A model generated the notes under the pieces. The model was given only the letters and a program-made list of their open reading frames with translations. It had not been told where the DNA came from and searched no databases. From Psammoneis japonica (Eukaryota): 53,625 nucleotides of DNA. This document shows, piece by piece, positions 13,901 through 46,817 of the stretch. The position numbers were made by a program, and so were the translations under genes. The stretch spans positions 1-53,625 of the forward strand of contig QPGO01000332.1 of assembly GCA_008632985.1 (NCBI GenBank). Reading direction: 5' to 3'. Every line of letters starts with the position of its first letter. Position 1 is the first letter of the stretch.

Positions 13901-16080
13901 CTCCTGGCCAACAAGTTGCTGGGAAGAGGGCCAGCAACACGCGCCTCACTGTCAAATGAGCCCCAAAGCACAGAAGGGAGCATTCTCAACTCTGAATGCA
14001 CAAGGCAGTGGAGCAGACTTTCCAGCAGCAGCCAACATTGCTCTCCGCAAAATGTTGTTCTTGGCAGTCATTGTGCCTGCCACTTTGTGCTTCAATCTTG
14101 TCAACAAACTTCCACAGTTGTCAAGAGCAATGCAGCCTGGTGCATCAGTTCTGAACACACATTCAAAGGACAGAGCTTCTTTGTCCACTTTGGAAACATC
14201 AAGAAACACACAGTCACAAAGTCCAAAATAAAATCAGCAACACAAAACCCAAAAATGTTGCCAAGCTGATCAGTGTTCTCAAAGTTTCCATCAGGATTGA
14301 ATTTGAACTCATTGTTTGCACCAAAGCTGTTGCCCAAAATTTCCTCCAAATTTGTGTTGCCCTCATCTAACATGCTGGTGCCAGCTGCAGTTGATGCAAT
14401 TGATGTTGTTGAAGATTTGCCACTGAACAATCCAACATCCATCCAGTCATCATTGCTGCCTCTTAAAGCCTCATCTTGCCCTGTGCCATCATCCAACAAA
14501 CTGCTGCCACTCCACAAATCACCATTGTTTCTTTTGCTGTCATTTCAAGGTGCACCACCAGCAGTGCCAAAATGCCTTTCTCACCACTTGCTGAAATTTC
14601 CTTGCAATGGTGGGCACAAACTTGCATTTCACATTTGTCTGCAGGATGCTGCTCAATTGCTCAAAACTGGGCTTTTTAGCACAATCATTTTCACAGCAAT
14701 CAAGTCTTTTTTAAAATGGCAAAACCACCAATGAAACATCATCGCATTGACAGCACACCTTCATTTGTCTGTGGAGTGACACCAGACAGCATTTTTGCCA
14801 CAAAGGCACAAATTGACTGCCATCACTTGTTTTGCAGCTGTGGCAACTGCTGCCACACCGACCAAAACAACTGCTGCCATTTGAGAAACATCTTGCCTCT
14901 GCAATGGCTGGCACACACCAACCCCATCCATTGCTTGTTCACACTGTCCCACACTGACATGCTGGTGTGCCAAAGAAGCTCTCATTTGTGACCATCACTT
15001 TGGACTTGGTCCAGCAATGGCGGGGGCTTGAGCTCCAATGTTGGCATGATTTGCAGAAGATGTTGTTTCTGACTGTGGACTTTGAGCACAAATGCTGTGC
15101 CTGAGCTTGATGCAGTGTTCAAAGCCACTTCTGAACATTGAGTCCATCTGAAGTCCTTTGCTGCACAACACCAGCTTTCATCAAACTCTTCTCTCTTCTC
15201 ACACAGGACAAAATTTCTCACAAAAAAGTGATCTTTGCCAAACCTTTGGAAGGGGACTCTGGAAGACATGTCTTGTCCTCTGCAGCGCAAAGAAGCCAAC
15301 CTTGCCACGTGGCACTGGGCTGCACCCCACTGTCAGTCAACTCCCACAAACAAGGCATGCAAGCAACAAGCATGGCTGCTGATGAAAAAAAGAAGTGTGT
15401 TGTGCGCTTTTGACTCTTGCAATGCTGGCAATGCCAGAAGCTCCTTGCCACATTCTTTGCTGAAACAAGGATGAAGCTCACTCAACAGTCCAGGCCAATG
15501 GCTCTTGAAAAAGCTTGTGCAGCACAGTGCCGCTGGCACCAGCTGTGCGCACAAGAACAGCAGAGAGCCAGCTCTTTAGCTTCACAGGTTTGTGAAGTTT
15601 TGGCACACCATGCAAAGTCATGTGTGCAGTTCCAGCCTGAGCTTTGTTGACATGTGCTGGCAACTCAGGTTTGTCAGAGTCCTTCAGCACCTCCTTGTCA
15701 TCTTTCGAGATGACAACATCCTCTCCTGTGTCTTCTTTTCCCTCCATCTCTGCTGAGCACGCAGCAGTGAGTGCCGAGCTGACGACTCTCAAATGTCACA
15801 GCTTCCTGCTCTTGTCTTGACAAATGAGCTGTTCTCAAAGGTCCCAGTTGGCATTGCCAGGGCTTTGTCTGGGGGTGTCGCTGTTCAAAGTGTTGCCCTT
15901 TTTGACTGCAACAGGAAGTGACCTTCCGCCAGGCAGCAGCGGCAGCCTGCCAGAGCCACGCCATGTGCAGTCTACCGATGCGACAGACAAGCAGACAAAA
16001 CACAAAACAACACAACGAACCCAGAACTACTGTAGGTAGGGTGAAGTGATGGGTCACCCCTTCAGCCCTTCAGATTTAGA
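10980..16080 (-). mobile_element. Degenerate PIF1-helicase-encoding (Helitron-like) element, minus strand
   Basis: Walker A MTGGPGCGKSF (~11780-11810) and Walker-B-like DVLFLTDDVGQVLAELLVALDTLL (~11550-11610), then KLFLPGAICEVLHN. Possible 5' A|TC end at 16080 (weak). Confidence 0.6.
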
Positions 16081-17344: not shown

Positions 17345-17665
17345 TGTTGAATAAGTACTGCATCCCTTGACACGTTAACTGGACAGCTAAGCAGAGTATC
17401 CAATATGCTCCATCCGGCGACACTCGCAGCAGCATCAATGCGCATAATATGTAAAAGACCGGAAACAAGAGTATTAGCCAACCTATTCGTGGAATCGAGA
17501 CTGAAGATTGTCTCAAGCCAAAATATCCCCATTAATGTCATCATTGCTACCAAAGCCCATTATCCATATTGCCAGGGAGGCATCAAAAGCAGGAACGTGA
17601 GAATTTCTTGGTGCAGCCCATTGCTAACGGGCGGTTAAGCACGTGACGAGTAGGAGATTGGACAC
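17345..17665 (-). pseudogene. Partial, frameshifted duplicate of the ThrE-like gene at 18893-20784
   Basis: Aligns by eye to 19655-19955 (e.g. AATAAGTACTGCAT, GCAGAGTATCCAA, AAGCCAAAATATCCCCAT). Retains WILCLAVQ.T.QGMQYLF but carries several indels. Confidence 0.8.
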
Positions 17666-18892: not shown

Positions 18893-20784
18893 TCAAACTT
18901 GTTCTGGTGTTTCGCATCTCGTACTGCTAGCGCTCACGGGAGACGTCGTCGGCGCGTTACTATCTAGTTTGGAACCAAGAAACTCTGGTGGATGATCTTT
19001 CTTGTCGGGACAACATCGGTCACCCTTGTAATCTGGCAATTTCGAAAAAAGCCACAGCAAAACAAACGCAAGCTTGACTCCAAGAACCAGCCCAAGGCCC
19101 AGCACAATTATAGCCGTAAGATAAAATTCATCGATATCCTCGGAGGCATCAGCGTCCGCATTTGAACTCTGAACTGCATCAATAATGGCAACAAACGCCG
19201 AAAGAAAGACCCTGGATCCTGGAACCAACAAGTACAAGGCAGGTAGCAGGCAAAACCACAGATCCGAGCGCTGGTACTGGTATTGCTCTTCGTTTTCTCC
19301 ATCACTACGCACCGCAGTACTTGCAGCATCCGTCTCGGTGTTGTTGCTCTTTGTCATGTCTACCGCGGCGACGAATCGAGCTTCTGGAACAGTAAGAAAA
19401 CTCTCGTCGGCGTGCGGTGTCTGAGATCGTTCATGGTGACTTGCTGTAGGTTCAAATAGCATGTGTTCGCCGCAAACGCAGTAGTGATCAGAACATCGTC
19501 CATTTTCTTTTTTGTAAAGGTAGGACCCTAATGAATGACATCATTGATCCGCATTGGAATCGATTCGCTATTGCAATAGCATAATGCGCCACCATGGTGC
19601 ACGCAAAAGACGAAGCAAGACTTGTAATAAAGACAGGTTGATCAAGCGGGCCCTGAAATAAGTACTGCATTCCTTGACCGGTAAACTGAACAGCCAAGCA
19701 GAGTATCCAATGCTCCGGAGATACTCGCAGCTGCATCAATGCGCATACGCACAAGACCGGAAACAAGAATAGGAGCCACCCTTCGTGGAATCGTGATTGA
19801 AGATTATCACAAGCCAAAATATCCCCATCAATGCCATCATTGCTACCAAAACCCATGATCCAAATTCCCAACGAGGCACCAAACGCAAGAACATAAGAAT
19901 TTAGCACAGCCATTGCAAATCGCGTCAAGCCCGTGACGAGAAGGAGATTGGACATTTCATGCAAGCTCACAACAAAGGCAACTCCGTAGTAGAACCAAAT
20001 CATGGTTGCCATGACAACCGCTGGAGCACAAACATAGTCCGGCCATAACCGATATGCCGCCAATGCAATCATGGATGAAAACAGGGTAACCATTAGGTCC
20101 TGAATCGTGGCAAGCTGCGGATACAACTGGCAGAGGTAGTGAATCACACCAGCCGCCAAACCCGCGACAAAGGCTACGCCCATGTCTGCGGCAGTCCCAT
20201 CAAAAGGCATGCTGCTGCAGCACTCGACAATAACGGTATGACTAGAATTCTTCCAGGAAAAGTCCGGTAGGAGAATTCGAGTTTGATAAGTGCTCGAGAC
20301 ATTCTCGTCTGTTTCTTTTTTTTTTTCTTGTTTGCTCCAACATTAGTTGATTCCTACGAGTCGAACTTGTCATTTCCAAATGATTCAAACGTTGCAAACC
20401 CTGTTGAGTCGACAACGTTCCGTGCATGACACCCAGTGCTATGCGGCTTGTTTCGTGCATGGCTCGTCCATCAAAATCAACAGGAACTCGGTACGTTGCC
20501 GAGACGAGTCCGTGCTGATAGGTCCAATGCACCACATTGACCGATAGGTTCACATCCAATTCGGGTATCCCCAAAATATGACTCAGTTCCTCGACGAAAC
20601 TTATCGTTAAAAAGGTGGCATACGCCGACGCGTGCATGGCGTGAACCAGTCGCACAATAAAAAGAATGGAAATAATGTCATCCTGTGAGATGTTTTCATT
20701 ATTTGTTGTTGCGATCGACTGTAATCTAACAGCCAATCGCAATATTTCTTCAGGAAGTGGTATTTCCAAACAAGAGGCCTCCAT
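18893..20784 (-). pseudogene. ThrE/DUF1212-type threonine/serine exporter-like membrane protein split by three frameshifts
   Basis: N-domain FIVRLVHAMH...GLQRLNHLE, then a second frame LEFSYRTFPGRILVIPLLSS, then the multi-TM ORF 20210-19488, then ORF 19462-18893 with the C-terminal LPALYLLVPGS motif. Breaks near 20315 (T run), 20215 and 19505 (T run). Confidence 0.7.
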
Positions 20785-25703: not shown

Positions 25704-26741
25704 CTAGCCAAACTTGATATCGCAACTCATGGGGTAATGGTCACTGAGACTATTCCCACCAGCATCTGTCGGCGTCAGATACTCACAGATGGAACCTTTT
25801 CCCGGTGGGACAGCGGTGTTACTCGTATCGTGCAGGATATGATCCAAGGCACGTTGAGTATCGGTGATTTCCCCCGGAATGCCGGCGAGAATCAGATTGT
25901 TGTTGAGTGGGTCAAACGAATATTTCGTACTGCTGGACTTTAGCTCAAGATCATCAGCCTTATCAACATTGTCGCATAGAGCTCGGGTGTGTTCACCTTG
26001 TCTTCGTTGAAATCTCCAACCATGAGCACGAGTTCATTGTCTATATCCTGATCATCAATGAAGGTACGCATTGCCTCATACTGACGCCGACGAACATTGT
26101 GATTTTGAACCAAGAACCATGTGTGGATATTAAACACATTGATCATGACCCCATCCTTGTCAATTCGGGCGTACGACACACCCTCATCCAAACGACACTC
26201 GTTAGGAAGACCACATGCATCCCGAAAGGCTCTAAATTCATGCTTCACAATGGGACATTTGGAGTAAAGTGCCAAACCAGACCCTGATGATCCACGATCG
26301 TCGTAAATGTAGTGACAGTAACCCGCCGCAATCATGGCATCAAGGACTGTACCTTGTTCGGTCCACATTTCCTGAAGAGCCACAACATCGTAGGCATCAC
26401 CGGGAGATTGGGCAAACCATTCACCGATCCGAGCAGCTCGATCTCCCAGTGCCCAAATGCCATCTATTGCTGTCCGAATTAGGTTGAGGTTGTAGCTCAT
26501 TACGAGCACAGATGCAGCATCTGGAGTGCCAGCCGCGCACTTGTCGGATGTTGTGCCATGTTGGAAGGTATGATCCTCTTCGTCGCCATCCACACACACG
26601 CGGCACCATGCATCTTTGTCACATGCATCATTGGCAAAGAGTTTCCGAACACAGCAACTGCTTTCGCATTGGCTGCTCTTGGAGCATTCGCTGCCGTTGG
26701 GAAGCAGCGTTTTGAGCAGTGGTGGCAGTGGGAATCATCAT
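25704..26741 (-). pseudogene. Secreted EEP-family (neutral sphingomyelinase-like) phosphodiesterase, disrupted by Copia insertion and a 1-bp frameshift
   Basis: Motifs MSYN, DVVALQE, SGLALYSK, FNIHT, VGDFN; after a frameshift at ~25965, LDHILH and LSDHYP, with stop at 25704. A Cys-rich N-terminal segment precedes the catalytic domain. Confidence 0.85.
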
Positions 26742-27088
26742 TGTGGGAAAGCAGCCAGAATTCTAAGATTCGTCTGCACTTTCAGTGATTAAAAGCTGCA
26801 ATTGCGATGCAACAATCAATCAGCAACTTTGTTGCACCAAAAGTTGAGAGGTGACAATCAGTGCGTTAGAAAGATTATGAGCAGTTTTTATGAGCAGATG
26901 CAGCTGCCATCTAAAGGAAACGCGAAGTTAAACAAGCGCGAAGCTAGGAACAAACATCGCATCCGTGACTCGGCTTCCGCGGGATTCGAGACTGAGCATC
27001 GCACACGGGGTTCGAATCTTGGATCTCTGACTTGAATCGTGGAGGTCCGATGTTGTTGTAAAAACATGCAAACATGAACATTGTCACA
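26742..27088 (-). repeat. 3' LTR of Copia element
   Basis: Direct repeat of 33505-33851, differing at 7 sites. Confidence 0.97.
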
Positions 27089-27131
27089 CTCCCTTCAACA
27101 ATGTCGGGTGGAATGATGACTCGAAAACGTC

Positions 27132-30100
27132 TTGCCACTTAAGGAGCGATTTCCTGTGTTTGACAAAGAGATTCTGTGGTGGAGGTTTGGCGAAAATGTC
27201 TGCAATCTGATCCGCCGCATCAATTGGCAGGATTGACACGAGACCTTTGCGAACATGGTCTTTAAAGTGGTGAAGAGTGAGGTTGAAGTGTTTTGTCCGA
27301 GGACGCATCTTGGGCAATCTCGCGATCTCCAATGCTCCAGAATTGTCTTCAAAAGCCTTGCAATGTACGACTGGTGTCTTGGAAGGGACATCATGACCGT
27401 GATCCATAAATTCTTGAATGAGGTTCACAATTGGGATGGCGCTTCGAAGACTTTCCGAAAGAGCGACAAACTCAGCTTCAGCAGTGCTGAGCGCGATCTG
27501 AGTCTGCAGCTTGGACGTCCAGACAATCGGACATCCTGCATGGGTGATGACAAACCCAGTTCGAGATTTGGAAGTGCCGACGTCATCGGGTGCAGTCAGC
27601 TTATTCCAATTGCCCACAAAGTCCGCGTCGGCATGAACTTCAAGGGACTTGTCCATTGAGGGCTGCAGTGTGATGCCTTCAGTTCTGGTTGACCTCAGGC
27701 ACTCACAGAGCCATGGCACGGCTTCACCGTGAGAAACCTTGGGATCAGAAGAAAAGCGTGCAACTTGGTGCACCGCGTAAGCGACATCTGGTCGAGTGCT
27801 CTTCTCCAGAAAATTGAGCTTGCCGATGATGGATCGGCAATGAAAGCTCCCTTGGAAAGCAGGCTCACTCATGTGCCTGTGGAGGATCTTGGAGGAAGGA
27901 GCAGGAGCAGACTTGTCTGGCAGTCTCTTTGGAATGTTGGCCATCTCCAGCATCTGATTGACAAGGTGAGGTTGGGCAAGTTTCATTCTGCCATCTGGTG
28001 GTGTCTCGACGTTGACACCGAGACAGTCGTCCAGAGTGCCTTGACCATCAATGTCAAAATTCTCATCTCTGACATCCTGCATCGCCTTGTCAACAGCAGA
28101 CTTGTCAGGGGATGCAAAGATGCCGTCATCGACACAATGAATGAAAATGACATTGCCGCGAAAATGCAGGCACTCATCAACCGCCGATTGTACGAAACCA
28201 ATCCTTGACAATCCATCACGCAAGTGTTCTTGCCATGCTCTCCCTGCTTGCTTTTGTCCATGTAAGTTCTTGAGCAACTTCAGAACATGAGTCTCACCAT
28301 TGCCATGTTTTGTTTCAATTCCTGCAGGTAACTCCATGTGCACATCACATTCGATGTCGGCATGCGGGTGCGCCAGAACGAAGTCGACTTTGCGTGCACG
28401 CCACTTCTTAAGAATGGCAATGATCAGCAGGAGCCGGACAGTGAACCAGAAGACCACGGCAGAGCAGGTCTGGAAGTAGTTGACAGCATACTCTTGCTTT
28501 CCGCCGTGCACATTAAGTCGGGACTTCCATTTGAAGACGGCTTGGGTCTTAAGGCATTCGCACAACCAGCGCACAGTAGCGCAATGTCGGACAGACGACT
28601 GTCGTGCTTTTTTTGCGATTTGCGCGACAAATTGCCGTCGACGCCGACGATGACGATGACATTTTTCTGATTGTCTTACAGAACGACTTTAAAATATGCA
28701 CTTAATAGCGTTATCAATAATGCTCTTAAGAACATCAATACGTAAAGAAAGCTACCCGGACGAGCTCATAATCGTTCGATAATTGAATGCATCAAATGAC
28801 AGTCAAAAAACAGAGCTCAGTATTGGTATGACGTTTTGCGATTGAACGAAGGCTGCTCCTGGTCTATTTCATGACTTGATATGTTCGTAAATTTAATAAT
28901 CTAAATGTCTATAACGCTCAAAAACTCCAGGACACGTCGATGTCGTCGCTATCATTACGACAACGCACCGCCGTCATGTCGCCGATTTTTAGCGATGCTC
29001 GTGTAGCGCGCACGAAGTTTCCAGTACAAAAAAAATTCAGAATGTCAAATCGTCTTGCCATCCATCAGCTCGTTGTGCGAATACGTTAATGTCTCTTTTG
29101 CGCTTCATAGACCACACCGAAGGGAGAACATCAACATCGTCAGGTACGTCCTCTCTTGGAATGAGTGTCCAATGTTTCCTTTCAATGTGATCATTGACCT
29201 CCTTAACACAGGCCTTGATAAATTCGTCTCTGTCAGGTTCACGCATGGCCTGATCAAAGTGCATGGTGCCGGGGTCCGAGCTCGCCAGAAAAGAGATGGG
29301 TGAGTCCACATCGTCCTGCAGTTTGTAATCATCCTCGTGCATCGCATCATAACATGCCTCTGCCTCTGCATTGTAGGAGACAATGCCTTGAGCCCATTGC
29401 AGTTGGCTCTCGCGCATCCTTTCGGTCGGGCGTCGTTGTCGGCCGGACCCACTGGCACTGGGTTGACCCACAGTGCGCTGTGGCTCAGATGGTGCATCAG
29501 AATCATCTGGAGGCGTGCATGGCATTTCATCATCCGGTTGGGCATTGTCAAATGAGTCATCAGTGGTGGACGTGTCAGCAGGATGCAGCAGCTGAGACGG
29601 GACATCCGAGCTCGGCTCAGGTGGTTCCGTTGTGGCAGGGACTGATCCCTCAACCGGTGCGTCACTTGATTTCCCAAAGATGTTGAAAGTGCTCCTTGTC
29701 TTGAGTTGTCTGAAACCTGCAATGCCTTGCCATTGTGAGAATGTAGGAGGATTCCCAGCAAAAGGGCGAACGGTCTCAAAGAAGTCGTCAAATTGTGCGT
29801 GAAATTGCGGCGACACGAGTCCGGTCTGCAAGTTCAAAACCAAGGCAACTGAACCTGCATGTCTTGTTGATGGTCCCAAATTGATTCCCAACTTTGCCCT
29901 TGGGTCCCACTTGGGCAGCCTGCCTCCTCCCTGCAACCGGTTGTGCAAGGCGTAGACGGGACAGCCGAAGGTGTGGTGTTGTTTGAGATTGGGCTGGACC
30001 TTGACGGACGAGAAACGTTCCAGCGGAGAAGAGCCATCCTCGTGATTCGGCAAGTGATTCTTGATCTCGTTTGAGTTCCTGAGAGCGCTTGGCCACAAGT

Positions 30101-31888
30101 TCAACTCAACAGCCGTTGGCCATCTCACTTTTGCATGCAGGAGTTGCTTCCGAGATTGCTCTTGGAGGTCCCTCACTCTTTTCTCCGCGATGCCGTTTTG
30201 GAAGTGGGCGTTGACCCCACAACAGGATGTTGTTTGCTGTTGCTTCTTGACATCTTGTATGAAAGCATTGTCAGCAAATCTTCCATTGTCGGCGTGGTGG
30301 TGTTGAACACGGACGTGCATCCGGCGTGCGAATGCCTCGAAAGCGTGCTTGGCTTCGAGCGTCTCGGCTGAGGCAAGTCCTTTCTGCAAACACATGCATC
30401 CCAATCCGCTGAAATGATCAACAAAATTGTCGCTGCTCGATGCCTTTGTTTCGTAGGTCTCCCTTTGAGCTGTGGGATCAATCCAGGAGTGGGACTCTCG
30501 AGCTGGTCGACGGATGCGGCTTCTCCAGGCGAAGTTGCCAAGTGGATTCGTCGGTTCCGCTTGGACTTGGAGCGCCATGGTCGTTTCGTCATGGCACCGT
30601 GTGGGCAGCCGGCACATTTTGGGTTGTGTGCCTTTGTGAGGTGTTTCGGTAGAATGCCTGGGGCGGCCAATGGCTTTGTCATTTTGAATGACATGTGGCC
30701 CAGGCGGCAATGCCAACGCAACAGTTCACCCTGGTCATCTGTGGCAGCAAGGGCGTCATCATTTGGTGTGATGTTGATGGGTTCCGGCAAGTCCTGCTGT
30801 GCCTCCGGTGTCGTGAAATCTCTTAGGTTTTCCTCGTCTGAGTCTGAACGACTTGCTCCGTCTGTTGGCTCAAATGAGACAGGAGCATCCTCATCAGCAG
30901 TGTTGCGTGCGTCTTGCGTCTCGGAAGGACGTGTCTCGGATGGACTTCTGAAGACGTCTGTGTCAATTGCAGCCTCGTCATCATTCGCAATGCTCTCGTC
31001 ATCTGGTGGTATGATGTGAGCTTGACAGGCCACGTGCTCGATAGTTTCGACATCGGTTTGTCCTTCGACAGCGGCTGCAAAGGTCCGGCATTTGTTGGAA
31101 CCGGGTGCGGAGCGCATCTTGGCGACATTAGAGTTGGCGGACCATGGAATCAGGCGATGGCACTTGTGCTGGTCCCACATCAGCAACAGTCCGTCGTCCC
31201 CAGTCCAAGATGCGGTTCCGTGAGGCTCTGGCGTGTGGTCATTAGCTTGTTGGCTCCATTGCTGCGGGCAGAGAAGACAATGAGGTAAGTCCGGTGCGAG
31301 CAGCGCGTCTCGAATTTTGATGCTGTGCACTCGTCCCATGTCGTCCTCAATTGCCCACTGCACTGTTCCTTCTCCCTTAGCACGCAAGTGGCCCTTGACA
31401 CCGAGTGCCACTTTGTTGGATTTGCGAAGAGGACCAATGAAGTGTGCCTCGTTGTTGGACATGGTGCAGGAAGAATGTGAGTCGACACCGATTGCGAATG
31501 AGTCCGAATCGTAAGTGGGCTCCGTTCGCTCGGGACAGTGTGGTGTGGTTGAGTTGTACGCTCCAACCGTCTTGTGTCGCGCAATGACACAGTGAGCCTT
31601 CTTGGTGGCCACTCTGGAGCGGTGACCTGGCCTCGTCGACGTATGATGCCGTGCACAGTGCCTCGTTGGCCGTCGCTGGTAAGTCTTAACTCGTCTTGTG
31701 CCCAGTTCAGCCAGGACATGTGAGATGACCCACTCACCCAGCGTCATTACGGCATGTGACAGGCGCTTACACTTTTCTGAAGGAAGGGATAGCATCATGA
31801 ACAGCAGCATGATCCAGATCGACACTGCACATTTCATGACGCCAGCGACCGCTGTCAGGAGCACTGACACAGTGACGGCCATCTGCAA
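27132..31888 (-). pseudogene. Copia pol (protease, integrase, reverse transcriptase, RNase H), mutated, frameshifted near 30425 and interrupted by a MITE
   Basis: Motifs IGVDSHSS, WHCRLGH, HADNGRF, QNGIAEK, WSMKRKRD, LKNLHGQKQAGR, CVDDG, TRPD, ADADF, EDNSGA, ADIFAKP. Confidence 0.93.
28553..29085. mobile_element. 533-bp non-autonomous DNA transposon (MITE) with TTAA target duplication, nested in Copia RT
   Basis: TTAA at 28549-28552 and 29086-29089. ~15-bp imperfect TIRs GGCATTCGCACAACC / CGTTGTGCGAATACG. Excision restores KRDIKTQAVFKWK. Confidence 0.9.
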
Positions 31889-31924
31889 GGACAGCAGCAG
31901 TGTCAGAGTGAACCTGCAGAGCAG

Positions 31925-33430
31925 TCACTCTTGATCCACTTCGTTTAGGATGGTAGAGATGGCACTTGCGAAGGAGACTTTCTTGTCCGACGTGTCTGTG
32001 GATGGAGCAGACTGTTGCTTGCAGAGTCTACAGCCTTGGTTGCCCGGATCATCAGGTGAGTGTATGACCCAAGCAGTGTGATGTGGGCACCAGTGATAGT
32101 CGCGATTGTTGACGCGCTTGTGACAGCACTGATGACCGTTCACTGTCTTCTTAGGAGCGTCCTCCTTGGGCGGGACTTTCTTCCAGGCTTCGTCCGCTTT
32201 CTGTCTCTGACGTGGAGTGGTCTTGGTCTTCCTTGACCGTGTGCTTCTTTCCTTGGTTGAACCAGCCTTGGCCTTCAAAGCTTTAGATGGCTGAAGGTTC
32301 TGATCCTTGATGGAGTCTACCTTGGCTGCAAGCGCGACGATTTGCTCTTCAGCCGGTGACAGTGCTCCCCACTTCTTCTCGCGCTTGAGGTCAGCACATT
32401 TGTTCAGTGCCAACGTCATGATTTGCGTCGGCATGAATTCCTCACCGTCGTCGCACCTGTCCTTGTGCAACATGATGTGCTTGACGAACACTTCGTCAGC
32501 AGCTGCGGCGCATCCTTTGAATGGGTTCATGACAAGGTCGTCGCACTGCTCTCCTCTAGCTTGGAGTCCGTCAACGTTGAGCTTGGCGCACTTGTTGAAC
32601 TCTTCGATGTCCGAGTCAACAGCCGCCATGTGCGTGTCCAGGCTTGACAAGTTCTCGCGGAAGTAGTTGGTGGTGGAGCGTGTGTCAACGATGGCCTTTT
32701 GCACAAGCAGCTTGAAGAATGGTGTGCCGATTTGATTTCCATTGATCGTGTGGGAATCTATCTCAGCCAATGTCTTGTCTCTTGCTTCCTCCGTAAGGGA
32801 TTGAGAGATCGCCTCGGCCATCTGCACATTGTTCTGTGCTTGTCGCGTAGGTGGATTCGCGAAGGTGTTCGCGTGGGTTCTAACATCCTGTAGAGTGAGC
32901 AGTCCGTACTCGGAGATGAGATCTCGTGGAGTTCCATTCGCGTCGGGAATGGCGAGCATGTCTCCTGCCCCTGTTTTCCATCCTGCCTCGGCAGCTCGTT
33001 GACTGAGTGTCTCACAAAACCGTTTGAGACCTTCTGAATCGCCGTTGAACTCGTGCGGCAGCGGCACAGTGGCTGCGTTCCAAAGCTTGAGGCCTTGCGA
33101 TGTGCCGCAGTCGATGAAGTTGTTGGGACGGTGTTGACCTGGAGTCAACGCGAAGATCGGCAGTGGTGGCACAGGTGCCAGTGGTGGTCCACCTGGCGGG
33201 ACTCCACCTGGTGGGACTCCACCTCCGCCTCCTCCTCCACCTCCTCCGCCACCTCCTCCTGGAGGCACACCGGGAGGAATGACTGGGGGAGGTGCAGGAG
33301 CAACTGGAGCGGCTGCAGGAGCAGGTGCTGTTGCCGGAGCAGCAGCAGTGGCAGGAGCTGCAGCGGGTGCAGCAGTGGGAGCTGCAACAGAGGCAGCCAG
33401 AGCAGCCGCGGTTCGTGTCTGCGTGACCAT
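31925..33430 (-). CDS. Copia gag protein (501 aa)
   Basis: Pro/Ala/Gly-rich N-terminus, FALTPG motif and C-terminal WCPHH..W..H....C knuckle variant, lying just downstream of the 5' LTR. Confidence 0.85.
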   Translation of the reverse strand: MVTQTRTAAALAASVAAPTAAPAAAPATAAAPATAPAPAAAPVAPAPPPVIPPGVPPGGGGGGGGGGGGGGVPPGGVPPGGPPLAPVPPLPIFALTPGQHRPNNFIDCGTSQGLKLWNAATVPLPHEFNGDSEGLKRFCETLSQRAAEAGWKTGAGDMLAIPDANGTPRDLISEYGLLTLQDVRTHANTFANPPTRQAQNNVQMAEAISQSLTEEARDKTLAEIDSHTINGNQIGTPFFKLLVQKAIVDTRSTTNYFRENLSSLDTHMAAVDSDIEEFNKCAKLNVDGLQARGEQCDDLVMNPFKGCAAAADEVFVKHIMLHKDRCDDGEEFMPTQIMTLALNKCADLKREKKWGALSPAEEQIVALAAKVDSIKDQNLQPSKALKAKAGSTKERSTRSRKTKTTPRQRQKADEAWKKVPPKEDAPKKTVNGHQCCHKRVNNRDYHWCPHHTAWVIHSPDDPGNQGCRLCKQQSAPSTDTSDKKVSFASAISTILNEVDQE

Positions 33431-33504
33431 GGCAACAGCAGAGTAAAGTGGAATCGAGAGCTTAAGATCGATTGACTTAACTTGTAGATTTCGCAGAGGA
33501 AGCG

Positions 33505-33851
33505 TGTGGGAAAGTAGCCAGAATTCTAAGATTTGTCTGCACTTTCAGTGATTAAAAGCTGCAATTGCGATGCAACAATCAATCAGTGACTTTGTTGCAC
33601 CAAAAGTTGAGAGGTGACAATCAGTGCGTCAGAAAGATTATGAGCAGTTTTTATGAGCAGATGCAGCTGCCATCTAAAGGAAACGCGAAGTTAAACAAGC
33701 GCGAAGCCAGGAACAAACATCGCATCCGTGACTCGGCTTCCGCGGGATTCGAGACTGAGCATCGCACACGGGGTTCGAATCTTGGATCTCTGACTCGAAT
33801 CGTGGAGGTCCGATGTTGTTGTAAAAACATGCAAATGTGAACATTGTCACA
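33505..33851 (-). repeat. 5' LTR of Copia element
   Basis: Direct repeat of 26742-27088. Confidence 0.97.
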
Positions 33852-33913
33852 ATCATCATGCCAACAAAGACCACAACGGCCGACAACAACATGGGGCACA
33901 CTCCTTGCTGCAT
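33852..33913 (-). pseudogene. Displaced 5' end (signal peptide) of the EEP gene
   Basis: MQQGVCPMLLSAVVVFVGMM joins in frame to IPTATTAQTLLPNG once the Copia and one TSD copy are removed. Confidence 0.8.
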
Positions 33914-35176
33914 TGAGAACTTTGTGTTGTCATTGTGAATGATGATTCGGCATGGGTTCAGGGTCATGGTCCAAGCACTGCAGCAAAAGGCCTTGCATTG
34001 GTTGGATCGAAACGCCACCTTGGTTTGTGTTCTTGTGTGCTGCGTTTCACGTTTCACTCTGAGCTGTTTCTCTTTGCGGTCGACGCAAGGGCGGCGCCGC
34101 ACAAAGCAGCGCACCGCACGCAACTGACATGCATCCATCGAGGGACTGGCAGTTGTCTTGGTGCTCTGGTTTGCTCCAGGTTTGCAAATTGGAAAAGGGG
34201 CATCTTATGCAGTCACCCCACCAGCATGCATCTTGTCTCAGTGAGAAGCAGATGGGTGGCACCACAGTTTTAAAACTGATTGCACACAACAGCCAGCCCT
34301 CCTGCCTGCTGCTGATGCAAAACAAATCTCCGTGCAGAGGTTAGACTCCTCAACAAAACTCAAGGGGACCCACAACTTTCTCATTGGTGGAAGGCAAGAG
34401 TGCCTACAGACCTGCACATTGGTTTGCTTGTGCGGTCACTTGTTGCTTTAACAATTGGCAAAATTGAGTGTGTGTGAAATCCTCTGTGATGACGCACACA
34501 CACGTGTGTGTGTGCCTCTGGGTTGTTGTTCAAAGTTGTCTGGATGGCTGCAAGAGGGACGAATGGTTGCAGGCAGGAGACAAAAAACATGGTTTCTTGG
34601 AGGCCACGTGTGGAGTGGCCTTGATCTCACAAACCAAAACAGAGCAAGCATGATGAAGGAATTGATCTTTCACAAGTTTTGTTGCACCAAGGTTGATGGC
34701 CAACTCATCACACAACATGTCAAAAGCACACACAGCCCGTTGGGACAACAGCATTGTTGGGTTTGTTTGCAAGAGGCGGTTCATTGACAGGGGGGGTGTT
34801 CAGGTGCTGCCAAGGTGTGGATGTTGTGACCAGCTTTGATGCTCAAGTGTGACCCTCATGGTGTGCTGTCTTGCCAAAACGAGTGGCAAAAAGGCCCGGC
34901 AGGCTGGTCATTGTGCCGGACCCAGATGTGGTCAAAGAGGTGCTTTTGGCCACTTGGCACAATGTCTTCAACTGTGGATGGCAAAAACACAAAAGTCACT
35001 GTTTGGTCACAATTGCAACCCTTGTTTTGCATCTTTGACTTGCTGATGGGTGTCTTTGCTTTCACACACATGTGCAGGCCATGTGAGGTCAGTGCAGGCT
35101 GACAAGACATTCATGATGATGTCTTGGTCATTTGGTGGGCAGTGCTGTCCACTTGTCTGGGTCTCATGCTCACTGC

Positions 35177-38100
35177 TGACAGAAATTGAAGGCAAATGGC
35201 AAGAATTCAAACAACAACTCCTCACTGCTGTCTAAATGGCAGATGAGTCTCTGCTCAGAGACCGTCACAGGAGCCAAAAGACGTGTGAGTCGGTACAATC
35301 AGGCTGCTGTCATCATTCTTGTGAGCCTTGTGGCTCGAAAGCAAACCACATCGCGCGCGAACGCGCGGAACTGAAGCACACAAAACTGTGCGCGGTGAAC
35401 TGAACAGCACGCAACATTTTGCGCGCACCCAAATCCTGTTCAAATCCTGTCACTCCCCAGTTTGCTTGAGGGGTCACAGAAACAGATTCGACTTCGGATT
35501 GACTGAAGAACTTTGGAGTCAAAGCACCAAAACATGAGGAGACAAGAAAGGATCAAGATCCTGGAGCAACGTTGCATTCTCCAAGTGGGTCATCTTGAGA
35601 TGAGCTGCGTCTCCCCAATTGCAGATGCCATTGTGCTTTTCAAAGCTCAAGGCACACTTGGGATCTTGTGGGATTCCACATCCGCACTTGCAATGGAAGG
35701 AGCAAAGCTTGGTCTGGTTGACAATGTTGAAGGGCGGGACAACATCACAGGACAATGCAAACAAGTTGAAATCGCCCTCACTTCCTGAGCAAAGGTCGTA
35801 AAGACTGACAGCCGTCTGTTGGTTCTTGGAACGGTTGCCACACTGGGCTGCTGCTAGAAAAACAGAGCAATGCTCGAGCAGGGTGGCATGGCGGTTGCAC
35901 AACTCGGGGAACAGAGCAAGCATGAGTTCAAAGGCACAAGCAGCGGTCTTGTGTTCCACCAATCTGACTGCAAACTCAGCTGCATCTCCTGAGAGACTGA
36001 TCCAATTGGACAAACGAGTCTCAAGGTGCAAGCCTTCGGGGATCGGATTGGAGCAAGATGTCTTGTGGTGCAAGACTGCAGATGTCTGGTTGGGGCAACC
36101 AGCCCCGTGCTGCAAGACTTCTGGAATCCAAAAGGACTTGCCAGTCTTGTGACACGAGTCTTCGGGGATCTAATCAGGAGGCCAAGTCTTGAGGTGCGAG
36201 ACTTGGGGGATCCAATCAGGAGGCCGAGTCTCATGGCGCAAGACTTGAGGGATCCAACCAGGAGGCCTGGTCTCGAGGTGCGAGACTCGGGGGATCCAAC
36301 CAGGAGGCCCAGTCTCGAGGCACGAGACTTGAGGCATCCAATCAGGAGGCCTGGTCTCGGGGTGCGAGACTTGGGGCATCCAATCAGGAGGCCCAGTCTC
36401 GAGGCACGAGACTTGAGGCATCCAATCAGGAGGCCTGGTCTCGGGGTGCGAGACTTGGGGCATCCAATCAGGAGGCCCAGTCTTGAGGTGCAAGACTTGG
36501 GGCATCCAATCAGGAGGCCCAGTCTCGAGGTACGAGACTTGAGGCATCCGATCAGGAGGCCCAGTCTCGAGGTGCGGTGCAGGGAGGATCCGAGGCCTGG
36601 TCTCAAGGTGCAAGACTTGGAGGATCCAAAGACAACGAAGCTGCTTGGATGTCCTGAACTCCTCATCTGATGAACTGGTTGAACTGTTGTGAACAGATTC
36701 AATGATGGGAAAAGGAGGCTCCCCATCAGGAGATGCAAGAAGCAAGTTGTCATCTCCATCACTTCCCAAACGAAGGCTGTGAAGGGTGACAGCGGTCAAC
36801 ACGTGGAGGTTGGCAGCACGTGGTTTGCGGGGTGCAAAGGCTGCAGCTTTGGAAGCCATGGGTGGAGTGTCCCAACTGGTCTCGAAGTGCAGGCCTGCGC
36901 AAGGGTTGCAATCCTGCACTGGGCCGAGGTTGCTTGCAGGCGGGTTGGTCAAGACATGCGGGGCGCGACTGACACCAGTTCTGGGGGACACCTGAGTGGC
37001 GGCACAGTGCAAGGCTGGTGTCAAAATGGCACCGAGTTCACCTGGTTTGGATGGCAAGGGACTCGGCACAGGTGCGGAGGGTGCTGCGCCAGTGGCTGGA
37101 GAGGTCAAGTGGTCCGGACCAAGGCGGCAGTTGCGAAATTCCTCGGGTGTGAGCAACTGGGGTTCATTGGTCACATCATCACCGTTGCAAACTTTGACAA
37201 AGTAGAAGCTGATCAAAGCGGCTAGGAGGTTTCTGTGGGTGCGTGGCAAAGGCACTGCATTGGCGCCGTCTCTGCAAGCAGGTCGGTGGGAGGGTGCATT
37301 CCAATTTATGGGACAGGGCAGAACAAAGAGGGCTGTCATCGTCTTGATTGAGCACAGTGCCTAGAATGCATTCAAAGCTTTTGGCTTGTTGCTGTTGCGT
37401 GAGAACCATGACGGAGGATGGTGCAGCAGAAACAAAAGACAGGAACCAATCTAGAGCGCGATCTTGGCTCGGAGTTTTGACTTGGAACTTGGCTTGAAAA
37501 AGACTTGACTTGAGCTAGACTTGACTTGAAATCTTGGACTGTCTTAAAATCAGAAGTCGCCGGGTTGTGCTGTCCGTTTTGCAGTTGAGTGCCAAACTTC
37601 CCATCCGGTCCGTAGAGTTGTGCTGGCACGTCCGAACCCACGGCTGGCGGCGCTTTGGGTTGCTCACAAGCGGAGTGGCGGGTTGCAAACCCCTGCAGGT
37701 GAGCTGACCAGGGGTGGACAAGACCCCCAAACCGTTCTCATTTTACATCGGTTGGATTTCCCGATCAGGCTGGCCAGTTGATGCAGGCGTTGGGCGCTGT
37801 GGACGAAGGAACCAACGCAGAAAAAAAACACCCTCGCCCCAACGCAGGCTGCAATCACGGCTGCTTGCTCTCACAGTCATCCTCATGGACCCAGTGGAAC
37901 TGCAGAGCACCAGCAGTCTGGGCAGATCAGGCACAATGGACTCGGTGTGCTTGTGGAGTGGTGGCAAAGCCGCAGTCCAAAGAGTGGGTTCAAGTTCTTG
38001 GCCGTGAAGATGTGTGTGTGTGCATGTGTCTTCAGCAACGCAGATCCTTGAATGTGCAGGGTTCTTGACCGTTGACCGTTGAATGGGTGCATGAAGGGAT

Positions 38101-38648: not shown

Positions 38649-40329
38649 ACTGCACTGGATGCTGCATGCTGCCCAGCCCAAGTGGCAGCAGCAACCAAAA
38701 ATCAAAGCACAGTGGAAGATTGAGGTGAGGCTCTTCCAGCCAATGAACTACAAGACAAGATGCCCCCCTGGTGCCTGCCAATGGAAGTGATGTCAAGAAG
38801 TCAAAGGGTGTGGGGCACACCCCTGTGGTGCACAGCCAGAAGCTGCAGCAGCAGCAACAATGCCCAAGCTTTTTGCTGGTGATGCTGCACTCAACAACAG
38901 CACATTGTTGGCAAGGCCATTCTTGCAAGTGCAAAAGTTGTTGTGGAAGCAAGGAAAAGAAAACAGATCAAGGCAGCACTTGTCTGTGTGTGTGTGTGTG
39001 CAACTTGGCACTTTTTTGTGAAACACCAACAGTGTGGAGATGATGATTTGGCATGGGCTCAGGGTCATGGTCCAAGCTCTGCAGCAAAAGACCTCGTCAG
39101 TTGGATTGAAATGCCATTTTGGTTGCATTGGTTTCACTTTTCACCACTGTGTGAGAGCTGCATTGGCTGTGGGGTGGTTCTCCACTGTTCTGTTTTTGTT
39201 GCTGTCAATGCAAGGGCAGCAGCATCACACAAAGCAGCCATCGTTCTCCACTCTAGAGCAGAGAGCATTGGAACAAAATGGGGACTTTGAGTTGTCTTGG
39301 TGCTGGTCAACCACTGGCTCGCATCTTGTCTCAGCAAGAAGATGGGTGTGACAGCACTGCAGATCCAAAACTGATTGCATGACAGCCCTGATGAAAATCT
39401 GGAGGTTTGCCTTCACCAGATTCAGGTGAACCCACAACTTTGTCATGTTGGTGAAAGGCAAGAGTGCTTGGGGTCCTGTGAATTGGGCTGCTTGCATGGT
39501 CATTTCTTGCTTCAACAGTTGGCAGAATTGAGTGTGTGTGCTCCTCTGATGTGTGGATTGTTTTTCAAAGCTGGACAAAAATTGTTGGACAAACCATGGT
39601 CACCTGCAGACACCAAACATGGTTTCTTGGAGGCCAGCACTTGCAGAGAGCAGTCTTGATCTTGCAGACAAAAGCAGAGAAAGCATCAAGCTGGTGCATC
39701 AAGGTTGGCTAATTTGTCGCACAACATGTCATGAGCACTGCCAGCTGGGGTGACAACATTGCTGGGTTTGTCTGCAAGAGGTGGATCATTCTTGGCTGGG
39801 GGGTTTCACGTGCCACCAAGGCATGGGTGTCAGCCATGACCAACTTTGATGCTCAAATGTGGCCCTCCTGGTGTGTGGTCTTGCCAAAAAGAACAATGAA
39901 AAGTTGAGGCTGGTCATTGTGCTGGATGCAGTCAAAGAGGTGCTTTTGGCCACTTGGCAATGTCCTCAGCTGTGGGTGGCAAAAAGACAAAAGGCAGGCT
40001 GATGAACCATTTGTGTTGATTTCTTGGTCATTTGGTGGGCAGCATTTTTGTCCACTTGTCTGGCCTCAGGATCCCTGGACACATCATGCTGTCCAGCACA
40101 AGCAGCAGCAGCAGCCAAAAAATCAAATCGCATGCTGAAAAGATTGAGGCAAGGTTCCGCCGCAGCCAATGAACACCAAGACAAGATGCCCCCCTCGTGC
40201 CCACAAATGGAAGTGAAGACAAAGAATGCAGCACTCTTGCACACACTTGCACACACTGCCCTCCTCAGCCAAGTGCATTGTCAGCCACTTCATTGCTCTA
40301 GAAGGAAAATGCACATCCCACCTCCCCAC

Positions 40330-43300
40330 CAATGATGGTGCTGCCATCAAGATCCAGCAACCACATGTTGGCCAAAACTCTGTCACTTTTTGACATCCTG
40401 CTGCTCCACATCATTTCATCCATTTCCTCTCTAGACCCAAGTGAATGTTGAAAGTTTAAGGATCTGACATGCCCACATCAACAAATGGCACAAAAAGACT
40501 TGTGCTTTGCAGAACATTGGTCCAAATGGGCCACTGCGACCACTGCAAGCTCTTGCAGTCACTCACAGGCCTTTGGACATGGCGGGGCGATTTTAGGGAA
40601 AAAGATGGCAACCCTGCAGCAGGGCCCCACATTGTGTGACACTGCACATGAGCAATGCAGTGCTTGGGCCATGGGTGCACATGCTCTTGACTGCTGCACA
40701 GAGAGTCTGTGTGGCACGATCACAGGACCCCCCCCAATGCCCCACTGCATCCAAAGCCCTGGTCACTGACATCAACACTGACAAAATGGCAGGCAAAATG
40801 AAAATGCAAGTGGAACAAAAGCACACACAATTGGGAATCACCAGGACACCTGTCACAGCACACTTGCCTGGCCACCTTGCAGAGGCAGCTCTGAGTCACC
40901 CTGCTGAGTTTCATGGTCTCAAAAGTGTTGCCAGCAGTTTGTGGCATCTGCACATCCAAGAGGAGGTGAGGAGTCCGGCAAAACAACCCCCCTTCTCTCT
41001 GTCTCACCCAGCACAAAGCCCAGACTCACAGCTGCACTGCCAAGATGTGACATCTTCCAAAATGAGGTGTGTGACATCATGTCTCAGATGGCAAAGACAG
41101 TGTGGTTGCATTGCGGGAAGAAAAGGTTGGTGAAGACCAGATGCCACCAGTGTGCATGAACAAGGCAACACACAATGAACACTTGCAAGGCATGCAAGCT
41201 TCATCAAAATGGCCCCAAAACTCAATCAGTCACAGCGTGCTTTATTTTGCTCATGCACAGTGCTGTCAGAAATTGGGGTGGCAAAAAAAATGACGTGCCA
41301 TCATTGTGCACTGACCAAGACCCCCCAAAAAGACACTGAGTGCATCACAAATCCATCTTGTTCAAATTGGGTGCACCAGTGGATGCAAAGTGGAGAGAAG
41401 CACAAGGCTCTCTCAAACGGATGTGCTGTGGTGGTGCAAGTGTGCAAATGCCATCAAAAAGACACCAATGTTGCAGACACAATGACCGGCTGCACCAGAT
41501 GATTGACTTTGCAGGGTGCAACAAAAGCCACAATGATCTTTGGCAAATGGGAAAAGGATGCCAAACAAGAAAACATGGAAAGAACTTGCCACAGCAATGT
41601 TGTTGACCATTCAGATGTCACCCGGACAGCACAGCAATTGAGTCACAAGTCAACAAGGCACAGAGCTGTTTGTGCTGTGTGTGGCAACCAAAGCCCCCCC
41701 CAGGAAACCAAACCCATGCACCAACCTCTTCACTTGTGGCAACAACAGAAAAAGAACCTGCATGAAAAATGCATTGGCTCCATGATGTTTGCCATGTCAA
41801 AATGCGTCAAAGTGCAGTGTGCCATTTTCCATGCCAAATCAGGAATGTTTGGGTCCAATTGACTTGTTCAATCACTGTGCAATCCAAGGTCTGATGATTC
41901 TCCAACACATCCAGCAACAAGACTTTGCAATGGTCCCAGCTTGTCGTGCTGGCTGAGTGCTCCTCAGCTGTTTCAAGGAAGCTGAATGCTGGCCTCGTGC
42001 TGCTTGTCACAATCCGTTTTGCCAAAACAAGACTTTTGTTTTGGCCAGCTGCCATTTGGCCCCTCTTTCAAATGTCTCCACCACCAGTGCCACCAACAAA
42101 CAGAAGCTTGCCCATTGCACAAATGTTTCTGCAACATGCGAGACAAACATTCTTTTGCCATTGGACAACACAGACACTGGCGCCCTGTCTGTCCATCTTG
42201 CATGTTTACAATCAGGGACTGCAGCACATTGCAAAGCCTCCCATGCAGATGCAGATCCGATGCTGTGTGCTCTTGCAACTCCAGAATGTCTTTCATCTGT
42301 CTCCAGCCCTCATTCTGACCAAACTTGTCCACATGGAGTGCAAGAACATGAGCTCAGAGTTTTTGGCATGCTGCAGCCCTTTGGATGATTTGGCTCAAGC
42401 TGTTTTGCCAACTCCATCATTTTGACAGCATGTGGCAGATGCATCCCAAGGTCCCTGCATTTCTGGTGACATCAAAGTCCACATGTTGCCAGCTGCCGGC
42501 ATGAGTTTTTGTTCTCAAGCACATGTTTCAAAGCTGGAGGTGCAGCTGATGAATTGAAAACACCCATTTTTCAGTCAAGTCAAGAACCACAACTTTGTCA
42601 CACAACTCACCAGGGAAGCAAATCTGAGTTGCTTTTGTCATTGGTCTTGTTTCATCCAGATTGCACTCCAAGTTGAGACCACAAATGGCCTCACTGTCAA
42701 GATTGGAAACCTTGTTGGCCATGCTGAGGGCCCAGTTCTTGACCTCAGTTTTGGTTGAGAACACAACAAACTTGTCTTTTGCCAAAGCGGCCCAAAAAGC
42801 CCATCTGAGACTTGCACTGCCATGGCTTTATGTTCTTGTGCAGTTCTTGAAACACATTGGGCCACAAACTGTGGTCTCCACCACCATTGCCTTCAGCCCT
42901 TTTCAGCTCAGCAGCCCTGCTCTTGGTTTGTGCAGTTTGGCAGAGTGCAAAATGTGGCCTGAGCTCATCATTTGATTTTGTGTGGGAAAACAATTAAAGT
43001 TGACCTTGCCCTCATTTGACAGGGAATCACACATTGAGAGGAACTTTTTTCTTGCTTGCTTTGATGCTGGCACCATTTTGGCAAACTCAAATGAATGGTT
43101 GCTGCTCTCTGAGTTGTCAGGGTTCAAATGGAAGCTTTCCTGAAAATGTGACTCACAAATGTTCACAACTTGGCAAGGGAAATTGTAAAGCCACAACAGC
43201 GTCAGTGCAGCGCAGCATGTTTTTTAAAATGTCAAGCTGCAACAAGAGATGCACCTGCAGAAACACCTTTTCAGGAGACATGGACGGTTTCAACAGCACA

Positions 43301-45950: not shown

Positions 45951-45984
45951 CTCAAGACCCATCACACTTGTGGTGGGAAGCCAG

Positions 45985-46817
45985 GTGGAGGGGTGCAATT
46001 TTGGGGTGTAAAAACACGCGTCCCTTAAAAAACATTGCAGCCAACAAATCTGGCACCAGACAGAGACATGCATTTTGTGTCATTGACCACTCAGTGGTTG
46101 GTGATTGCAGACTTTTTCATGTTGGTTTGTCAGTTTGTTGCCATTTGAAAGTGTGTCCCTTGGATTTTGGAATGGCATGGGCTCTTTAGTGTGCAAGTGA
46201 ATCACTCGAATTTGTGGAATGATCATTGAGGACATTGTGGTTCATGGGGACTTCCTAAAAAATTGACAAATTCTCTGCGATGGGTGCGTGGAACTGTTTT
46301 TCAGTGGAGCTCGAAAATGCTGTAAAAGATGCATTCCAGCTCTGGGTGGGACCGCACACTGTGATGCTGAACTCATGGATGCACCAAACTGTGACATCGA
46401 CAGTTTTTTGGATCGTGCCGCATGTCGTGCACGTGGAAAGGTGTGTGACTTTTGTGAAAATGTGTGTCATTTTGTGGCACACTCATTGAGCAATCTGTCC
46501 AACAGCTTTTGACATTTTTTGTTGCAGCACAACAGAATTGTGCAGGGCAGGCACATTGTTTGCAAAAATGTTGAGTGGTGAGAGGCACAATTGCACCTCA
46601 AACTTGGCAGTTTGTTTGATGTTGAAGACAAACATGTCCATTGATTTGCTCACACTGCGGAGCTGGCACGCAAAATTCCAGCGATTTGATGTGCGCAAGG
46701 TTGCAGCGGAGCCGCCAAATGCCATGGTGTTTTGATGCAGTCTCATGAATGTTTCTTGCCATGACTTCCAGCTTGTGTCAACAATTGATTTGCGATTTAC
46801 AGTCATCCAATTTCACA
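45985..46817. repeat. Relic related to the MITE at 48163-48871
   Basis: 46691-46820 aligns with 48557-48760. 45990-46020 (GGGGTGTAAAAAC) matches the MITE subterminal repeat. Confidence 0.55.

Follow-up and report, generated by a model that had tools for sequence, protein, structure and literature searches.

Repeat-induced point mutation (RIP), which is found in Neurospora and other ascomycetes, senses homology and turns CpA into TpA, and it also mutates single-copy DNA that lies beside or between repeats. Another way into the history of mobile DNA is the dating of nested insertions, in which an insert is taken to be younger than its host. The subject of the present work is a stretch of 53,625 nucleotides from the diatom Psammoneis japonica (contig QPGO01000332.1 of assembly GCA_008632985.1, called the window in the following), in which a non-autonomous miniature inverted-repeat transposable element (MITE) of 533 bp, hereafter the element, resides within a TpA-hypermutated Copia retrotransposon. 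From our point of view, the element is most probably a young copy of a multi-copy TTAA family, whose insertion into a surviving TTAA followed the TpA mutation of its host.

Hypermutation of TpA has one precedent in print, which comes from another lineage: in Bigelowiella natans, DNA of giant viruses and virophages that has become integrated undergoes TpA-specific hypermutation, and the process is described as non-constitutive, being seen in some of the lines only (Mettrop et al., bioRxiv 10.64898/2026.01.13.699255). The two patterns are alike in that the changes are almost only T/A to C/G at TpA and in that they are regional, with foreign or mobile DNA struck and the surrounding genes spared; in Copia, TpA has become CpA or TpG on both strands. 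They differ in that the target here is transposon DNA, that the pattern is a fossil one instead of a record of mutation accumulation, and that our focus is on an element that was not hit. The non-constitutive activity described for B. natans would fit an insert that escaped by arriving late. Diatoms are not mentioned in the text of the preprint (Mettrop et al., bioRxiv 10.64898/2026.01.13.699255), and literature searches, judged by their listings, showed no report on TpA loss in diatom transposons or on an A-to-G counterpart of RIP.

The comparison with RIP is of a different kind. Both processes kill repeats by dinucleotide-specific transitions and leave reading frames partly open, but the direction is opposite, since RIP leaves C-to-T changes at CpA and an excess of TpA, whereas in Copia TpA is depleted and CpA and TpG are enriched; moreover, nothing in the present data ties the process to meiosis or pairing. 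As in the dating of nested insertions, the nested element orders events and dates the mutation, with the difference that the clock is targeted hypermutation and not neutral divergence. What is new at this locus is the dated unmutated insert, a caveat on ascertainment and an argument from the spreading of the mutation.

An unmutated element in a hypermutated Copia

The features on which the argument rests are the following.

26737..26741, no strand: left copy of the Copia target-site duplication ATCAT (right copy at 33852-33856)
26742..33851, minus strand: host Copia long terminal repeat (LTR) retrotransposon of 7.1 kb, TpA-hypermutated, with matches to RVT_2, gag_pre-integrase and SH3_retrovirus
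26742..27088, minus strand: low-coordinate LTR of Copia (TG...CA), which shares 97.1% identity with its partner
28549..28552, no strand: left TTAA target-site duplication (empty-site contigs hold a single TTAA)
28553..29085, plus strand: non-autonomous element of 533 bp with terminal inverted repeats (TIRs), a MITE by its ends, composition and want of a long frame, with 30 TA and 46 CG
28553..28570, plus strand: left TIR, with 15 of its 18 positions matched by the right end
28586..28645, no strand: left subterminal cluster of GTCG/CGAC words, from the word positions
28936..28978, no strand: right subterminal cluster of GTCG/CGAC words, likewise from the word positions
29068..29085, minus strand: right TIR, which holds a TA in RTAY context at 29082, 4 bp from the end
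29086..29089, no strand: right TTAA target-site duplication (empty-site contigs hold a single TTAA)
33505..33851, minus strand: Copia LTR at the high-coordinate end, partner in the LTR pair

An earlier note on this DNA, made from the letters alone, had described a TTAA-flanked MITE at 28553..29085, and this description holds, as TTAA stands on both sides (28549-28552 and 29086-29089) and the TIRs proper pair at 15 of 18 positions. With the TTAAs included, the inverted-repeat pair comprises 22 nt and is 86% complementary. The mismatches fall on positions 1, 3 and 15, and the single CA versus TA difference between the TIRs, to which the note had drawn attention, is the one at position 3; it may be the only TpA hit that the element has taken, or else a trait of its family. 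The 533 bp are non-coding, with no open frame of more than 68 aa in any of the frames, and none of the 111 open reading frames (ORFs) of at least 120 aa in the window matches a transposase family of Pfam. The locus thus combines the size and TIRs of a MITE, a TTAA duplication with an empty site, and the lack of a transposase gene.

Proof that the element is an insertion comes from public reads. One public sample matches the stretch (runs X1-X3; a fraction of 0.46 of the words is present in X1), and its runs were aligned to positions 27600-30000 at a likeness of at least 80%, which gave 554 aligned contigs for X1, coverage of 17 of 30 bins for X2 and no alignment for X3. One X1 contig and one X2 contig join 28548 directly to 29086 and skip 537 bases, and the four letters that fit on either side of this joint are what marks an empty site carrying one TTAA. 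More diverged X1 contigs also bridge the insertion site without the element. As such, the element is an insertion with TTAA duplication and not a part of Copia.

The insertion point lies in the N-terminal part of the reverse transcriptase, where the pol frame of Copia is interrupted. The insert together with one TTAA measures 537 bp, or 3 x 179, and the frame number is preserved across it; a stop codon 49 bp inside the element terminates the upstream pol frame.

In its dinucleotide composition the element stands apart from its host. It holds 30 TA, at an observed/expected ratio (o/e) of 0.70, and 46 CG (o/e 1.86), with CA and TG at 1.06 and 1.11, respectively, whereas the Copia interior has 60 TA in 5875 bp (o/e 0.19) with a CG o/e of 0.78. 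The TA o/e is 0.33 in the Copia LTRs and 0.58-0.59 in two genic stretches. Set against the products of TpA mutation, the ratio TA:(CA+TG) is 30:71 in the element and, in the interior of Copia, 60:1051 (Fisher p=8.5e-13), and compared with the genes (441:1655) the element is slightly richer in TA (p=0.046). The element is therefore unmutated, with no excess of CA and TG and no loss of CpG. The contexts of its TA sites (R, purine; Y, pyrimidine) are RTAR 10, YTAY 7, RTAY 7 and YTAR 6 and do not differ from those in genes (chi-square p=0.58), while the contexts of the surviving Copia TA do (p=2e-5). The observation in the earlier note that the MITE, unlike its host, is rich in TA in all contexts is thereby confirmed, and the words quoted there (AAATATGC and others) are indeed present.

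The mutation state changes sharply at the borders of the element. On the outside, mutated Tyr codons of the host are found at 28464-66, 83 bp to the left of the element, and at 29259-61, 170 bp to its right; on the inside, a TA has been kept in RTAY, the most mutable context, at a distance of 4 bp from the end.

TA loss in Copia and in its surroundings

The two LTRs of a retrotransposon are identical at integration, and any difference between them has arisen thereafter. In the Copia LTR pair (347 bp), eight sites differ, all of them TA/CG versus CA/TG; three are TA/CA, two CG/TG and two double CA/TG changes, with no other difference. The direction of the mutation is set by conserved Tyr codons and by the majority of the family. 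When the window was aligned with the best 40 of 1015 Copia relatives (52-64% identity), 26 columns had Tyr in at least 60% of the 40, and at these the window has Tyr in 6, Cys in 7, His in 6, Phe in 4 and other residues in 3, so that 13 of the 19 informative conserved Tyr codons of Copia now encode Cys or His. The reads agree: among the 39 variant places listed in the Copia flanks (40 of 397 rows), 22 have CA (12) or TG (10) in the window where other copies have TA, TA making up at least 70% of the depth in 13 of these 22, and the reverse pattern occurs at none of the 39. The loss of TA in Copia is thus real mutation of integrated DNA. Editing at the RNA stage before integration was considered as the sole cause and rejected, since the LTRs differ from each other and since both CA and TG products are present, which editing of the sense RNA alone would not produce.

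Not every Tyr of Copia has been lost. The earlier note had remarked that the Copia sequence right beside the MITE keeps some Tyr within the peptide QEYAVNY, and this peptide does sit in the minus-strand Copia ORF, with its two Tyr codons at 28488-90 and 28476-78, in columns where 65% and 85% of the 40 relatives have Tyr.

The survivors also reveal which sites the process spares. In the two dead blocks of the window, where the o/e is 0.04 for TA and 0.13-0.15 for CG, 35 of the 46 surviving TA are in YTAR context, compared with 95 of 661 in genes, and 14 of the 46 lie inside TTAA, compared with 27 of 661 (p=3e-8). The TpA process is hence weakest at TA with a 5' pyrimidine and a 3' purine, and TTAA words tend to survive. 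This has two consequences, namely that (i) TTAA-seeking transposons keep landing sites in DNA from which TA has otherwise been erased; and (ii) the intact TTAA duplications of the element are uninformative on timing. The latter had been a candidate line of evidence for late insertion, and we rejected it, TTAA being a spared context.

The loss of TA is not confined to Copia itself, as the following feature demonstrates.

26570..26741, no strand: TA-free zone (0 TA in 172 bp) in non-Copia DNA adjoining the left LTR, the 5' coding part of an Exo_endo_phos gene

In this zone, 7.1 TA would be expected (P=8e-4), and the CG o/e is 0.77. At the start of the conserved part of the Exo_endo_phos protein, which falls within the zone, one Tyr shared by seven of nine homologues is His in the window, and another, present in the closest homologue, is Cys; deeper in the gene, every Tyr that is invariant among the homologues has been kept. 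The mutation could have leaked into the gene either from Copia or from an older dead block across the Copia target site. Since TA loss extends at least 170 bp into non-Copia DNA, the process is not confined to repeats, and it follows that an insert of 533 bp with target DNA on both sides should not have escaped it. A spread of at least 170 bp into non-repeat DNA argues for the targeting of domains, as in a chromatin-like spreading, over strict homology.

On the other side of Copia, the 244 bp from 33857 to 34100 hold no TA at a CG o/e of 0.78, which is Copia's own mutation profile, and from 34100 to 34700 the CG o/e is 0.25-0.31.

Timing of the insertion

We infer an order of events in which Copia would have integrated first, whereupon TpA-to-TpG/CpA hypermutation would have struck it, as DNA, together with its surroundings. 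The element, moved by a transposase encoded elsewhere, would then have used as its target one of the nine TTAAs that had survived in the Copia interior, and it would have met little or no mutation since, so that its TA and CG were kept. A rough comparison of doses supports this order: the host retains about a third of its informative Tyr codons, while the losses of the element amount to a few at most among 30 or more TA sites. Had the element been exposed to the loss rate of the host Tyr codons (13/19), two or fewer losses in 32 TA sites would have a probability of 3e-13. The earlier note had offered insertion after an episodic wave of mutation as one of two explanations. The late insertion stands, in view of the absent CA/TG excess, the absent CpG loss and the mutated host sites only 83 and 170 bp away, but the wave does not follow, because the data are accounted for just as well by a steady process and an element that came late, and a single insert is as compatible with the one as with the other.

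Several observations speak against a late arrival. The LTR pair gives a low loss of about 0.15-0.29 per TA site, and at 0.15 two or fewer losses in 32 sites have P=0.12, which makes the contrast, on this measure alone, a weak one; the number of TA sites that the element itself has lost is bounded only indirectly. An X1 contig of 244 nt, which spans 28782-29025 with two differences from the element and thereby speaks for its unmutated state, could stem from the same locus instead of from another copy. Lastly, TA in Copia peaks at the insert, with nine TA within 150 bp on either side compared with a mean of 3.0, a pattern that local protection would produce as well. Nowhere in the Copia interior is the number higher, 0.5% of sliding windows reach it, and the excess is significant with and without the target's own TA (Fisher p=0.002 and, after their subtraction, p=0.007).

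The TA peak would fit protection if the element was already present during the mutation yet exempt from it, in that targeting by homology or by a Copia guide RNA would have spared the heterologous loop and the host DNA adjoining it. This was the second explanation in the earlier note, which spoke of an unpaired loop and of homology-dependent targeting, and the coincidence of the change in mutation state with the borders of the element agrees with it too. We nevertheless consider it unlikely, and protection as a loop is not supported, for several reasons. The TA-rich patch contains four of the nine surviving TTAAs of the Copia interior (28408, 28513, 28549 and 29203), and the numbers of TA within 350 bp of the nine are 4, 5, 12, 15, 14, 13, 12, 4 and 4, among which the 14 of the insert is unremarkable. 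The choice of target accounts for the TA-rich patch of host DNA around the insert. Conserved Tyr codons, moreover, fare alike near the insert and far from it, with four kept and six mutated at up to 300 bp and two kept and seven mutated farther away (p=0.63). The raised TA was accordingly rejected as a decisive sign of protection, both for the ascertainment that comes with target choice and for the result of the Tyr comparison. The spread of TA loss by at least 170 bp past the LTR into the DNA of a non-Copia gene is likewise at odds with an exempted loop, and as RIP reaches single-copy DNA between repeats, a loop would be unsafe even under a RIP-like model. In addition, the element seems to belong to a family that is itself repeated, as judged from the 24 contigs with another letter at 28608, and its relatives appear, by eye, mutated where this copy keeps TA. 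Finally, the CpGs of the element are undecayed as well, and these would not be protected by pairing. If the exemption were true all the same, the insert would break up the targeting, leaving about 150 bp of host DNA on each side shielded, and nested inserts could then reveal by what rule a new eukaryotic genome-defence mutator of the A:T-to-G:C type picks its targets.

It is also conceivable that the mutation was patchy and that, irrespective of when the insertion took place, the element and the DNA close to it fall by chance into a patch without mutation. TA/(TA+CA+TG) does range from 0 to 0.12 between 300-bp bins along Copia, but no host bin comes near the 0.30 of the element, and with mutated Tyr codons 83 and 170 bp away the patch would need to match the insert closely, which makes this explanation quite improbable. 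That an assembly chimera or a gene conversion put an unmutated segment inside Copia we regard as very improbable, as the TTAA duplication is exact, the borders coincide precisely with the TIRs, the empty-site forms lack the element and 4 bp and nothing else, and 537 is a clean insertion length, even though no contig spanning an element/Copia junction was found among those listed.

With the late arrival of the element as the favoured reading, its value lies less in the element, which is ordinary in itself, than in its service as a clean internal control and time marker for a TpA-erasing process. It shows that the TA poverty of Copia is not an effect of regional composition or of the assembly, that the process has been without detectable action since the insertion, and that the mutation state can switch within a few bases. 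Many nested inserts, each dated against its host, could separate steady from episodic activity, and the sparing of YTAR and TTAA together with the spread of at least 170 bp are useful clues toward finding the enzyme.

Family, ends and neighbourhood of the element

That the element belongs to a family is suggested by its ends: 24 X1 contigs carry another letter at 28608, and the summed depth (which is not copy number) peaks, across the stretch, at the ends of the element, so that these ends would belong to a multi-copy family. Loose ends of the alignments at 28668, 29000 and 29029 indicate relatives with the same ends and different interiors. Compared by eye, the consensuses behind these loose ends have TG or CA at four of five TA sites of the window and CA at two CpG sites. 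Behind 28668, the agreement is 20 of 30 letters, with TG in the relatives at the window's TA 28690 and 28695; before 29029, with an offset of 1 nt, the last 27 letters contain four mismatches, in each of which the relatives have CA, for TA at 29004 and 29025 and for CpG at two further sites. This hand-made comparison faintly suggests that relatives of the element can be mutated elsewhere.

Within the window, a sensitive blastn search with the element matched only the element itself, and a degenerate pattern of the ends, with one mismatch allowed, found both of its ends and one chance match at 35890. A metagenome scan with an 18-letter end pattern returned 20 loci that are alike for only 18-30 nt, which is about what chance would give by a rough estimate, and these were rejected as relatives. 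No autonomous partner of the element came up in these searches.

As to the superfamily, piggyBac TIRs are described as 12-19 bp long and beginning with C[C/A/T][C/A/T] (PMC5381638), and Kolobok, which the earlier note had named as a possibility, as having a TTAA target and the terminal letters RR (PMC6004289). The left end of the element begins with GGC and the right end, read inward, with CGT, which corresponds to GG at the start and CG at the end of the plus strand and bears out the statement in the earlier note that GG...CG does not resemble the CC...GG of piggyBac. The TTAA duplication and the TIR length would suit piggyBac and the terminal letters do not; for Kolobok, the TTAA and the GG of the left end (RR) agree, and the right end reads CG inward. 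The TTAA duplication hence points to piggyBac or Kolobok as candidate superfamilies, and the ends fit neither rule cleanly. In its TTAA, short TIRs, small size, lack of coding sequence and probable multiple copies, the element resembles piggyBac- and Kolobok-type non-autonomous elements, such as the T2-MITEs of Xenopus (PMC5381638, PMC6004289), and it is set apart from them by its ends.

Inside the element, the subterminal parts are rich in CpG and the core is rich in AT. The GTCG/CGAC words cluster behind each end, and those of the left cluster are possibly binding sites of the transposase. The sole match of the element in Rfam, with 18.9 bits against a gathering score of 38 (E=0.76), was rejected, and single-strand folding (z=-1.5) gave nothing past the pairing of the ends.

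Some further observations concern the host Copia. Its surviving TA between 27089 and 33504 are strand-skewed (RTAR 27 versus YTAY 6), as are the products on the plus strand (TG 598 versus CA 453), and this bias suggests that the mutator acted more on one strand. One X2 contig of 838 nt, whose kind was guessed as DNA, extends over 28328-30000 and tracks Copia without the element, skipping four short stretches (29144-29236, 29300-29376, 29657-29746 and 29844-29913), three of which fit GT..AG on the plus strand, antisense to the Copia ORF; these features give it the look of an antisense transcript that was spliced and that came from less mutated members of the family.

The Exo_endo_phos gene (25943-26741) abuts the Copia LTR by 8 bp, and its homologues are about 20-45 residues longer at the N-terminus; Copia probably sits in the 5' end of this gene.

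Elsewhere in the window, the blocks at 7500-15900 and 39000-46500 have almost no TA and CG left, and their long open frames have no match in Pfam. Copia, in comparison, has lost TA and kept most of its CG, and the loss of TA seems to run ahead of the decay of CpG. For an AIR carboxylase gene, Protein Atlas gives Eukaryota as the origin, and one homologue is attributed by its source to Thalassiosira. A tandem-like set of repeats lies at 36111-36629 in a TA-poor block, and the genic part contains a repeat pair (17350-17664 and 19657-19954) of 315 bp and 81% identity.

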